Shown here: positions 3,180 through 55,321 of the stretch, one piece after another
Numbering within the stretch: position 1 is the first letter of the stretch
How the letters are laid out: the number at the start of each line of letters is the position of its first letter
IMG/VR virus record: IMGVR_UViG_3300028886_000004
Span: 70,992-134,991 of that record
Reading direction: 5' to 3' (one strand)
DNA from: a virus
Lineage: Duplodnaviria > Caudoviricetes
Length of the DNA stretch: 64,000 bases
Position numbers and translations under genes: made by a program
Notes under the pieces: generated by a model
Database searches by the model: none
What the model was told of the DNA's origin: nothing
The model's input: only the letters and a program-made list of their open reading frames with translations

Positions 3180-3329
3180 TTGTGATCCTTGCGTGGCAGG
3201 AGATGGCCAAAACTGCCGCCCTGATTAGGGTAGGGATAGGACCGGAGGCCGCGTTGAAAAGCGCTATAGTGTTGAAAAGCCGCTCCGGAAACCGTCCACA
3301 AAGGTTCAAATCCTTTCCGGGGGTCACAA
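3180..3329 (+). ncRNA. tRNA-like RNA with truncated anticodon arm and giant variable arm
   Basis: 12-bp closing stem, GCAG/CTGC D arm with GG loop, AAAGG-TTCAAAT-CCTTT T arm; own promoter (3117) and terminator (3346). Confidence 0.6.
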
Positions 3330-38400: not shown

Positions 38401-38581
38401 GCGTGTGGTCCAATAGGGTGAGCCCCGGTTGCAAACTCGGCAGCGCCTGAACGCGGTCTTGGACTCAAATGATCGGATTATTGCAATTAGTCCGATGCTG
38501 TAGTAGGGTCGGTAAAAGAATTCGAAGCTTGTAGTAGGATGTTCCCGCCCCGAGGCTACCGGTTCGACTCCGGCGCACGCG
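38401..38581 (+). ncRNA. tRNA-like RNA with ~110-nt insert
   Basis: GCGTGTG/CGCACGC acceptor, CCGG-TTCGACT-CCGG T arm, two TTGCAA(A/T) loops. Confidence 0.6.
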
Positions 38582-38852: not shown

Positions 38853-39049
38853 TTGTCCATTTTGACAAGGACAAGCGCAATGATTTGGTTTTTACGATTT
38901 CTGTGGATGAAAACAATCACATCGAAATTATCATAGACCAGCAGCGCCCGCCGTGTGGCGACTTTAATCAGGTCGGCCACTACTCCGTTCCCGTCCCCGA
39001 AGAGCCTGCCGAAATTTTCACTATCAAACAACAAGAGGAATCGACATGA
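38849..39049 (+). CDS. hypothetical protein
   Basis: GTGA overlap, AGGAGG RBS. Confidence 0.6.
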   Translation: MIVHFDKDKRNDLVFTISVDENNHIEIIIDQQRPPCGDFNQVGHYSVPVPEEPAEIFTIKQQEEST

Positions 39050-39432
39050 AACCTATGGTAGAAACGAAACACGACCTGCTCACCTCCAATTACACGCAGG
39101 TATTCGAAGAAGCCAATCCGCAGACCTATGCACCGAGCACTTTTGAAGTGACCCGCAAGCTGCCCCCGAACACGGAATTCAACCCGGAAACCGACCTGCT
39201 CGCCAAGGTCCATTTCCAAGAAGGTCCGATCAAGGAGCAGGGCGTCAACGGCATCAACAACGAAGATGCCATTGTGATGGTGATCCGCCGCCTTCAGGGT
39301 TTCCAAGACAGCCCGTTCTCCTGCCGTGAAAACGCTATGGCCATCACCAAGCTCGAAGAAGCATTGATGTGGCTGCGCAAGCGCACAATCGGCCGCGAAA
39401 AGCGCGAAGTTGTGGGAACCAGCTCCGTATAA
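39046..39432 (+). CDS. Tad1/Acb2-like nucleotide-signal sponge
   Basis: FQEGP..GVNG..RL.GFQ.SPFSCRENA.AITKLEEALMWL.KR...R.V.GT matches the Tad1 family pattern. Confidence 0.8.
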   Translation: MKPMVETKHDLLTSNYTQVFEEANPQTYAPSTFEVTRKLPPNTEFNPETDLLAKVHFQEGPIKEQGVNGINNEDAIVMVIRRLQGFQDSPFSCRENAMAITKLEEALMWLRKRTIGREKREVVGTSSV

Positions 39433-39438
39433 TCTAAT

Positions 39439-39555
39439 GCGGCCGTAGCCTAGTGGTAAGGTAGCCCGGCGGCGAATGGAAGCGCCGCGAGCGGGTCCCG
39501 TTCCCACTTCCATAATGGGGCGGCTTTGACGCTGGCTCAAGACCAGCCGGCCGTA
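39439..39555 (+). ncRNA. tRNA-like RNA with extended anticodon arm and kissing variable arm
   Basis: Intact acceptor, D and T arms; TATAAT 5 nt upstream. Confidence 0.75.
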
Positions 39556-39586
39556 ATAACAAATTCAAAAATCAAGAGGTAAATCA

Positions 39587-40093: not shown

Positions 40094-40109
40094 TTTCGTT
40101 TTGGGTTTC

Positions 40110-40229
40110 GGGGACGTGATCTAATTGGTAGCGACCCCGTCAAGGGACGAAAGATAGTTGGTTAATCGCCAACGGTAGCCGCAAGGCTGCGAGCGGCGGG
40201 GAGTGTAGGTTCGAAGCCTGCCGATCCCG
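40110..40229 (+). ncRNA. tRNA-like RNA with branched insert at anticodon position
   Basis: GGGGACG/CGATCCC acceptor (stem extends to 16 bp), AATTGGTA D-loop, CCCCGTC/GGCGGGG, GTAGG-TTCGAAG-CCTGC. Confidence 0.65.
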
Positions 40230-40242
40230 GAATCCAATCATT

Positions 40243-40272
40243 TAAAGGCGCCCCACAAGGGCGCCTTTATTT
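40243..40272 (+). terminator. intrinsic terminator followed by -10 box for queE
   Basis: TAAAGGCGCCC-CACAA-GGGCGCCTTTA. Confidence 0.7.
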
Positions 40273-40309
40273 CCGTATATTTTTCATATCTTAACCGGAA
40301 AGGATAAAA

Positions 40310-54818: not shown

Positions 54819-55321
54819 AAACGTTTTCCTTCCGCCCTATCCTTCAATAGGGCAAGATATTCGGTATCTGTGATCTTGTAGTCAACTATTTCCGCCACCT
54901 TCAAATTCTCCAGGCGCTCGCGCTCAATTGCGGCTTCCATCGCCTTACGCTTGGCATCGGAAACATCCGCCTGCATCGCACGCTCGAGATATTGGATGGC
55001 TGAAATCTTATACGAATATCCGGACAAGAACTTCCAATGCCAGCACTTGAAATAGGCGTTGCCGCCGCTTTTATCGTTGGGCGGATAATACTGCTTGTCC
55101 GGGTAGTCAAACACGAATTGCTGCACCCAATACATCTTGTCCTTCGTGCGGATGACGCGGTAAGACCCTTCACGCCTTTTGTTTTCCGCCTCTTCCCTTG
55201 CCTTGGCACGTTCTCGGCGGGTATCTCTAATCCCAAAGATGGTGGCGCCTATAAACATCGCGCCAAAGACAATGACAAATGCAATGCTTTCCCAATTTGC
55301 GTAGAGGTATTCGTAGGTCAT
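54815..55321 (-). CDS. hypothetical membrane protein
   Basis: N-terminal TM; AGGAG RBS. Confidence 0.65.
   Translation of the reverse strand: MTYEYLYANWESIAFVIVFGAMFIGATIFGIRDTRRERAKAREEAENKRREGSYRVIRTKDKMYWVQQFVFDYPDKQYYPPNDKSGGNAYFKCWHWKFLSGYSYKISAIQYLERAMQADVSDAKRKAMEAAIERERLENLKVAEIVDYKITDTEYLALLKDRAEGKRL

Follow-up and report, generated by a model that had tools for sequence, protein, structure and literature searches.

A conserved tRNA-shaped phage RNA with two complementary loops and no apparent decoding role

tRNA-like stable RNAs of phages and bacteria

Stable RNAs that resemble tRNAs are already known as a broad kind from both phages and bacteria. The T4 stable RNAs species 1 and 2 (rnaC and rnaD) are phage-encoded, measure 139 and 119 nt and are annotated beside tRNA genes; we know of no function assigned to either. 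The Y RNAs of YrlA type reportedly have both ends at the Ro60-binding stem, while their acceptor-like stem is capped with a loop. These non-decoding RNAs (RF02553) mimic the elbow formed by the D and T arms of tRNA, and occur in phages as well as in bacteria (Chen et al. 2014, PMC4201824). Among true tRNAs, the class II molecules (tRNA-Ser and tRNA-Leu) combine a 7-bp acceptor stem, a 4-bp D stem, G18 G19 and a T arm with a long extra arm. Fully paired 7-nt kissing loops of antisense RNAs are represented by the complexes of ColE1 RNA I and RNA II, which form between two different RNAs and control replication. In engineered ‘tRNA scaffold’ RNAs, a foreign RNA is carried in the anticodon arm for processing and stability. 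Phage tRNAs can also evade tRNA-cutting defences, and those described in a 2024 Nat Commun report (PMC11555353) are working tRNAs that replace cleaved host tRNAs.

We studied an RNA at positions 39439-39555 (+) of a window of 64,000 nucleotides, by which we mean the whole stretch of DNA analysed. The window comprises bases 70992-134991 of a complete phage record (134,991 bp, direct terminal repeats, 52.6% GC overall). Like T4 rnaC, which has a tRNA-like acceptor stem and T arm in a weak Rfam alignment, this RNA is built on parts of tRNA, but it lies between protein genes rather than inside a tRNA cluster and has a pair of complementary loops, which is not known from rnaC or rnaD. A model built on it found no match in the T4 tRNA region that holds these two genes. 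We also rejected an identity with YrlA, on the grounds that the family is not among the Rfam matches at E up to 10, that the topology differs (the two ends of the present RNA pair with each other in a normal acceptor stem) and that no Ro60/TROVE gene (PF05731) is present in the complete phage genome.

All of the class II features listed above are found in the RNA, and its D arm resembles that of tRNA-Ser from a related phage (G002) and from Fibrobacter. It departs from class II tRNAs in its doubled anticodon arm, 8-nt loop, 7-nt linker, and discriminator A with a G1.U72 pair. With the ColE1 complexes it shares seven contiguous Watson-Crick complementary bases with hardly any spare loop bases on one side, although here both loops sit on one tRNA frame and their pairing is putative. 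The logic is that of the engineered scaffolds, in a natural, phage-borne and conserved form whose payload spans the anticodon and extra arms. The RNA and the phage tRNAs of the 2024 report are both of tRNA type with a possible role against immunity; the RNA studied here would not decode, because its anticodon arm is lengthened by 6 bp. The preliminary description of this locus stated that no RNA of this architecture had been described. This holds for the exact design, for which the generic tRNA model is the only Rfam match; it does not extend to the broader kind.

Fold and conservation of the RNA

The Rfam tRNA model (RF00005) covers the RNA from end to end with 35.7 bits (gathering score 29, E = 3e-6), and the same match was recovered in a whole-genome search, although a speed-filtered scan of the whole window had passed over it. 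The alignment places 61 nt where the model expects 15. ARAGORN made no tRNA call at this position, whether or not introns (0-100 nt) were allowed. An Rfam scan of the RNA at E up to 10 returned only the tRNA model and a chance match to radC, and a tmRNA identity was ruled out.

The acceptor stem pairs 39439-39445 with 39548-39554 in the Rfam alignment and begins with a G1.U72 wobble. It is followed by a D arm (39448-39462) with a 4-bp stem, a 7-nt loop, A14 and G18 G19, and by a 5-bp inner ‘anticodon’ stem (39464-39468 with 39492-39496). Inserted within the inner stem is an outer hairpin (39469-39488), which consists of a 6-bp extension (39469-39474 with 39483-39488) and an 8-nt loop (39475-39482), with an invariant 3-nt bulge, GAG (39489-39491), between the outer and inner stems. 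A long extra arm (39498-39523) pairs 39498-39504 with 39517-39523; its strands of 9 and 8 nt allow two drawings, a 7-bp stem under a 12-nt loop or an 8-bp stem that has one bulged base and a 9-nt loop. Between the extra arm and the T arm runs a single-stranded linker of 7 nt (39524-39530), in which one position is either A or G and the others are invariant; its last base is the likely C48 partner of G15. The T arm (39531-39547) has a 5-bp stem and a 7-nt loop with U55, C56, a purine at 57 and A58, and C at position 54. The 3' acceptor strand and discriminator A (39555) complete the RNA at 39548-39555, and CCA is not encoded. All of these parts lie on the plus strand.

When we re-read the sequence, every motif listed in the preliminary description was found where it had been placed. 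Its account of the arms was sound for each element that it named and incomplete in leaving out the GAG bulge, the bulged base or 12-nt loop of the extra arm, and the 7-nt linker. The core tertiary bases U8, A14, G18 G19, U55 C56, A58 and the G53-C61 pair are all present, so that a tRNA elbow should form; they are invariant in nine aligned copies, and C54 is the sole atypical core base. No standard 5-bp anticodon stem with a 7-nt loop lies at the normal distance from this elbow.

We identified relatives of the RNA by searching the contigs of the 68 homologues of the downstream protein P0002, which yielded 10 loci where the RNA is complete and the order of genes is the same. A pattern scan of metagenomes added five more copies, one of which was a contig already in hand (L087), and revealed no new loop variant among the five. 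In total there are 14 copies, 11 of them distinct, all in related phage contigs and always after an Acb2/Tad1-like sponge gene. The RNA was absent from 80 viral loci retrieved through the widespread sponge protein, and it had no match in three Fibrobacter genomes. A DNA pattern scan of viral contigs gave 20 hits, all 20 of which were attributable to chance. A hit of the RNA model in G002 was discarded because it overlies real tRNA-Asn and tRNA-Ser genes.

Across nine distinct aligned copies, 99.7% of cells in the proposed structure are paired, compared with just 28-44% in control structures whose partners were slid by 1-3 columns. The acceptor pair 4:113 changes from G-C to U-A in two copies, and the extension carries compensatory changes at 33:48, 34:47 and 35:46 in addition to one change from G-C to G-U, while its loop is invariant. 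One-sided changes were found in the D stem (10:24, G-U to G-C in one copy) and in the T stem (93:109, G-C to G-U in some copies, with position 57 varying between A and G only). In the extra arm, changes from U-G to U-A (63:82) and from U-G to C-G (64:81) agree with the proposed register, and variation in the loop is limited to its three 3'-most positions, two of which vary. Four of the five inner-stem pairs are invariant and the last is lost in one copy (L113). Paired changes thus back the acceptor stem and the 6-bp extension, and the D, extra-arm and T stems accommodate the one-sided changes. Few independent events underlie this comparison, as the phages are closely related (72-98% DNA identity in the flanking genes), and one exchange or recombination may account for all three swapped pairs of the extension.

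The predicted cloverleaf is not the minimum free energy fold (-51.2 to -51.9 versus -53.3 kcal/mol, that is, 1.4-2 kcal/mol above the minimum), and the fold z-score is only -1.1. The minimum energy fold contains a four-bp helix closing a three-way junction. We rejected it, since it is broken by changes at element positions 64 and 82 that fit the extra arm, and comparison of the copies speaks for the cloverleaf as the right fold. The preliminary description had claimed a tRNA shape, which the 35.7-bit match and the conserved copies bear out, and a lack of decoding, with which the anticodon arm (5 bp, bulge and 6 bp, with an 8-nt loop) and the rejection by ARAGORN agree. Comparison of these sequences confirms the RNA as a real, conserved gene for a tRNA-shaped RNA, predicted to be non-decoding.

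Some of the related phages do without it. Three contigs (L112, L115 and L116) lack the RNA, and in two others (L119 and L120) all that is left of it is the last 40 nt (L119:1057-1096), joined to the end of an upstream ORF by a deletion that took the sponge gene together with the first two-thirds of the RNA. The remnant indicates that the RNA is dispensable in some phages.

Gene row, host and maturation

The conserved gene order consists of an SbcC-like ATPase, small ORFs, the sponge gene, the RNA, P0002 and a QueE-like radical-SAM gene. The sponge gene (39046-39432, +) encodes a 128-aa Acb2/Tad1-like cyclic-nucleotide sponge, which matches Pfam PF24729 at 29.9 bits (cut-off 27) and phrog_2428 at E = 3e-42. 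It is the upstream neighbour of every full-length copy of the RNA and is shortened to 63 aa in four contigs (L088-L090 and L113). Part of this gene (39209-39420, about 210 nt) shares 67-71% DNA identity with genes of SPO1-like phages of Bacillus and Staphylococcus, which is unusual given such distant hosts. In an unrelated viral contig (L017:3399-3821), tRNA-Cys and tRNA-His genes begin 33 nt past an Acb2/Tad1-like gene, a further example of tRNA-type genes straight after a sponge gene of this type.

Downstream of the RNA, a conserved spacer (39556-39586, +) holds a ribosome-binding site, AAGAGG, for P0002, 20-25 nt 3' of the RNA, and has no terminator. P0002 (39587-39985, +) is a 132-aa protein of no known family with a fast-evolving N-terminus. 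Its 68 homologues are 50-98% identical, and no match to a family or function was found in Pfam, PHROGs or the protein atlas. The 239-aa radical-SAM protein at 40310-41029 matches the QueE-like phrog_2076 (E = 4e-33), which fits a 7-deazaguanine pathway in the phage.

The best genomic relatives of a FISUMP-type protein encoded in the window come from Fibrobacter and further bacteria of the FCB group, and we consider a (rumen) Fibrobacter a plausible host. ARAGORN identified tRNA-Glu, Ala, Asn, Tyr and Met genes in the phage. It also predicted a tmRNA with the tag AAPVAMAA outside the window (54831-55186 of the phage genome), and a weak tmRNA-like Rfam match below the cut-off (17.6 bits) lies at 908-1048 of the window. 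The related phage G002 lacks the RNA, and its tRNA cluster (L117:1256-1755) includes tRNA-Ser genes with anticodons UGA and GCU that are absent from the cluster of the studied phage (67719-68043 of its genome). As this compares two genomes only, it can at most hint at a trade-off.

A TATAAT hexamer (39428-39433, +) ends 5 nt before G1 and is conserved in all copies, making it a candidate -10 element. The preliminary description had it start transcription at the mature 5' end. The hexamer and its spacing are as described, but a two-box sigma-70 scan identified neither a promoter flanking the RNA nor a -35 partner for TATAAT. The hexamer also overlaps the last codons of the sponge gene and contains its stop codon, an overlap that by itself possibly explains the conservation. 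Fibrobacter, the likely host, may not use promoters of this type. No terminator directly follows the RNA, and a strong hairpin with a T-run first appears past 40237. Because the flanks have no two-box promoter or terminator and both neighbouring genes share the strand of the RNA, we consider it no less likely that RNase P and RNase Z release the RNA from a longer transcript than that it is transcribed from a dedicated promoter. The RNA keeps the acceptor stem, D arm, T arm and core tertiary bases, which are features read by RNase P, RNase Z and the CCA-adding enzyme. We predict that it is most likely excised from a longer transcript and then stabilized like a tRNA. Since CCA is not encoded, as is also the case in the tRNA genes of the related phage and in the Fibrobacter tRNA-Ser gene that we retrieved, maturation would include CCA addition by the host.

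We observed two additional tRNA-like elements in the same gene row, which lie within 1 kb of the RNA, one on each side, and are not reached by the Rfam tRNA model. The upstream element (38401-38581, +; 181 nt) has a 7-bp acceptor-like stem with G1.U72, a canonical T-arm hairpin and a large insert with two hairpins. The loops of these hairpins share the palindromic hexamer TTGCAA and are thus complementary to each other; a homologue at about L091:2285-2467 has the same loops on different stems. The downstream element (40101-40237, +), between P0002 and the QueE-like gene, has a long acceptor-like stem, a T-arm-like hairpin and a branched insert with a GNRA-type tetraloop. It is followed at about 40246-40275 by a terminator-like hairpin and T-run, the only clear one in the gene row. 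Farther away, at 3180-3329 (+), a structured RNA with a T arm contains the decamer GTTGAAAAGC twice. In one related contig (L121:2300-2432), the exact place of the RNA studied here is taken by a different tRNA-like RNA; CCGTATAAT again stands upstream, and the downstream spacer is likewise the same. The Rfam tRNA model matches this other RNA at 33.0 bits. Its anticodon loop carries an insert of 68 nt, and it also contains a second, internal T-arm-like hairpin.

Complementary loops and possible functions

The heptamers ATGGAAG (39476-39482), in the loop of the outer hairpin, and CTTCCAT (39507-39513), in the loop of the extra arm, are exact complements over 7 nt, as had been reported previously with the same positions. 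The probability of a 7-nt match by chance is 0.0013 for random loops, 0.004 for shuffled loops and 0.005 for any two unpaired segments, and the isolated loop-loop duplex has a predicted energy of -8.3 kcal/mol. In sequence the two invariant loops look like anticodon loops of Ser(GGA) and Gly(UCC). Between two natural complementary anticodon loops the match would span five bases (U33 to A37), but here positions 32 and 38 match too, which suggests that the two loops are tuned to each other. A search for antisense targets of the heptamers gave 15-20 occurrences on each strand of the phage, most of them Met-Glu codons and four of them start sites; we named no target, as 7 nt is too short to define one.

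None of the 14 loop positions varies in any of the 11 distinct copies (7 of 7 pairs are invariant in the nine aligned copies, and none is changed in the five metagenome copies). The sponge gene, compared across the same seven phages, is variable at 28.7% of its columns and at 54% of its third codon positions, so that the probability of no change at 14 positions is about 0.009 or 2e-5, respectively. With every loop base invariant, covariation is silent on a kiss, for or against. The D loop, the bulge and the linker are as invariant as the two loops, and hence the constraint on the loops is not specific to pairing.

We modelled the kiss by a rigid-helix Monte Carlo search with four A-form helices and linkers of at most 5.9-7 A per nucleotide, with the rest of the tRNA body omitted. 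This coarse search found clash-free intramolecular arrangements with all chain links satisfied, overturning an estimate from coaxial rods in which such a kiss was sterically impossible. All solutions have the outer hairpin bent back over the inner stem at the GAG bulge, by 129-158 degrees. The model thus neither supports nor excludes an intramolecular lock. A kissing-loop lock of the anticodon arm had been proposed in the preliminary description; the complementarity on which it drew does exceed chance, whereas the loops are invariant and the modelled RNA closes only with a sharp fold-back.

Several functions can be weighed against these observations. A decoding tRNA, whether Ser(GGA), Gly(UCC), a four-base decoder in which UGGA within the 8-nt loop reads UCCA, or a tRNA with a short intron, is close to refuted. 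The loop does contain U-GGA-A, and the related phage has the two tRNA-Ser genes that the studied phage lacks. However, an anticodon arm of 11 bp plus a bulge far exceeds the fixed span from anticodon to CCA, ARAGORN is negative even with introns of up to 100 nt, and the flanking genes are intact frames that need no frameshift. For a four-base decoder the 8-nt loop is suitable, but the arm is 6 bp longer than normal. Removal of the 46-nt insert as an intron also fails, as no exon junction yields a 5-bp stem closing a 7-nt loop. The introns known from bacterial tRNAs belong to group I and measure at least 200 nt. We find it equally hard to credit a decaying tRNA pseudogene, or complementary loops that are a functionless evolutionary leftover: the loss of the RNA in some relatives and a weak, non-significant similarity to phage tRNA-Ser genes would fit, but changes preserve pairing in all five stems and the unpaired functional positions are far less variable than the adjacent coding DNA. 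Descent from one particular tRNA was rejected after local alignments to 11 phage tRNAs (z at most 2.8). A doubtful but more substantial alternative is a cis-acting processing signal, at which RNase P and RNase Z would separate the sponge-gene and P0002 portions of the operon transcript (tRNA punctuation) and so set the stability or translation of the flanking mRNAs. The shared strand of the RNA and both neighbours, flanks without a two-box promoter or terminator, the P0002 ribosome-binding site 20-25 nt downstream in a conserved spacer, and the two further tRNA-like elements in other intergenic gaps of the row are all consistent with it. Such a signal leaves the loop complementarity unexplained, as well as the invariance of the 14 loop bases, the bulge and the linker, and a minimal hairpin of acceptor and T arm would suffice for cutting.

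Other explanations give the loops themselves a role. If they kiss within one molecule and lock the anticodon arm, the RNA could be a cleavage-resistant decoy that titrates tRNA-binding defence proteins, EF-Tu or RelA, as had been suggested previously. The exact 7-nt complementarity (P of about 0.001-0.005), the invariance of both loops and of the GAG hinge, the energy of the loop duplex (-8.3 kcal/mol), the clash-free closure in the coarse model and the position beside an anti-defence sponge gene all speak for this explanation; for the titration itself, the last of these is the sole support. We nevertheless regard it as unlikely, given that the loops never vary and hence show no covariation, that the 129-158 degree fold-back is accompanied by no K-turn-like G.A pairs at the bulge and by linkers near full stretch, and that there is no known target. 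In a decoy for an anticodon nuclease one would expect an open loop, placed as far from the elbow as in a normal tRNA, and a locked, lengthened arm offers no such loop. Pairing between copies, loop 1 of one with loop 2 of another, would instead build dimers or chains of a self-assembling RNA. It draws on the same complementarity statistics and makes the sharp fold-back at the bulge unnecessary, and the two palindromic loops of the neighbouring element could also pair between copies. Assemblies of this sort on a tRNA frame have no described function, and we hold this possibility to be distinctly improbable.

Our preferred reading, which we consider probable by a modest measure, is that the phage gene encodes a non-decoding ‘tRNA chassis’ RNA that carries a two-loop payload, with a role in phage-host conflict over tRNA as the likeliest function. 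On such a chassis the decoding end would be replaced by two hairpins, namely the 6-bp extension stacked through the GAG bulge on the 5-bp stem, and the long extra arm. Their loops would be the functional part, and could pair within one molecule, between molecules or with another partner. We count the Acb2/Tad1-like gene upstream as context in favour of this reading, together with the neighbouring element at 38401-38581 and its own pair of complementary loops, and the different tRNA-like RNA in the same slot of L121 in favour of an exchangeable chassis slot. That the RNA acts as a competitor for a tRNA-binding factor in such a conflict, and thus as a decoy, is a conjecture. A strict decoy reading is weakened by the comparison of the outer hairpin with the anticodon arm of Fibrobacter tRNA-Ser(GGA), since the stems differ and only UGGAA is common to both; the hairpin does not copy that arm. 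We found no genes for a CCA-adding enzyme, an Rnl2-type ligase, PTH2 or Ro60 in the phage genome, and thus no gene that points to a conflict over tRNA repair.

We speculate further, as a long shot, that chassis RNAs form an undescribed phage class, in which the tRNA frame would provide only maturation and stability and the payload would be exchangeable. Here the payload would be two anticodon-like loops that pair with each other or self-assemble, and it would neutralize a host factor that recognizes the anticodon loops of tRNA, for instance a tRNA nuclease of the immune system. If so, the RNA would be an RNA-based anti-defence device within a row of anti-defence genes. The RNA is a clean and conserved case, with an intact tRNA frame, complementary loops where the decoding end would be, and a payload in the slot that differs in a relative. 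Should RNAs of this kind turn out to serve in anti-defence or regulation, phage counter-defence would gain an RNA layer, and tRNA-scaffolded RNAs would have a natural precedent. Otherwise, the RNA is still useful for annotation, as an example of a match to the tRNA model that should not be called a tRNA.
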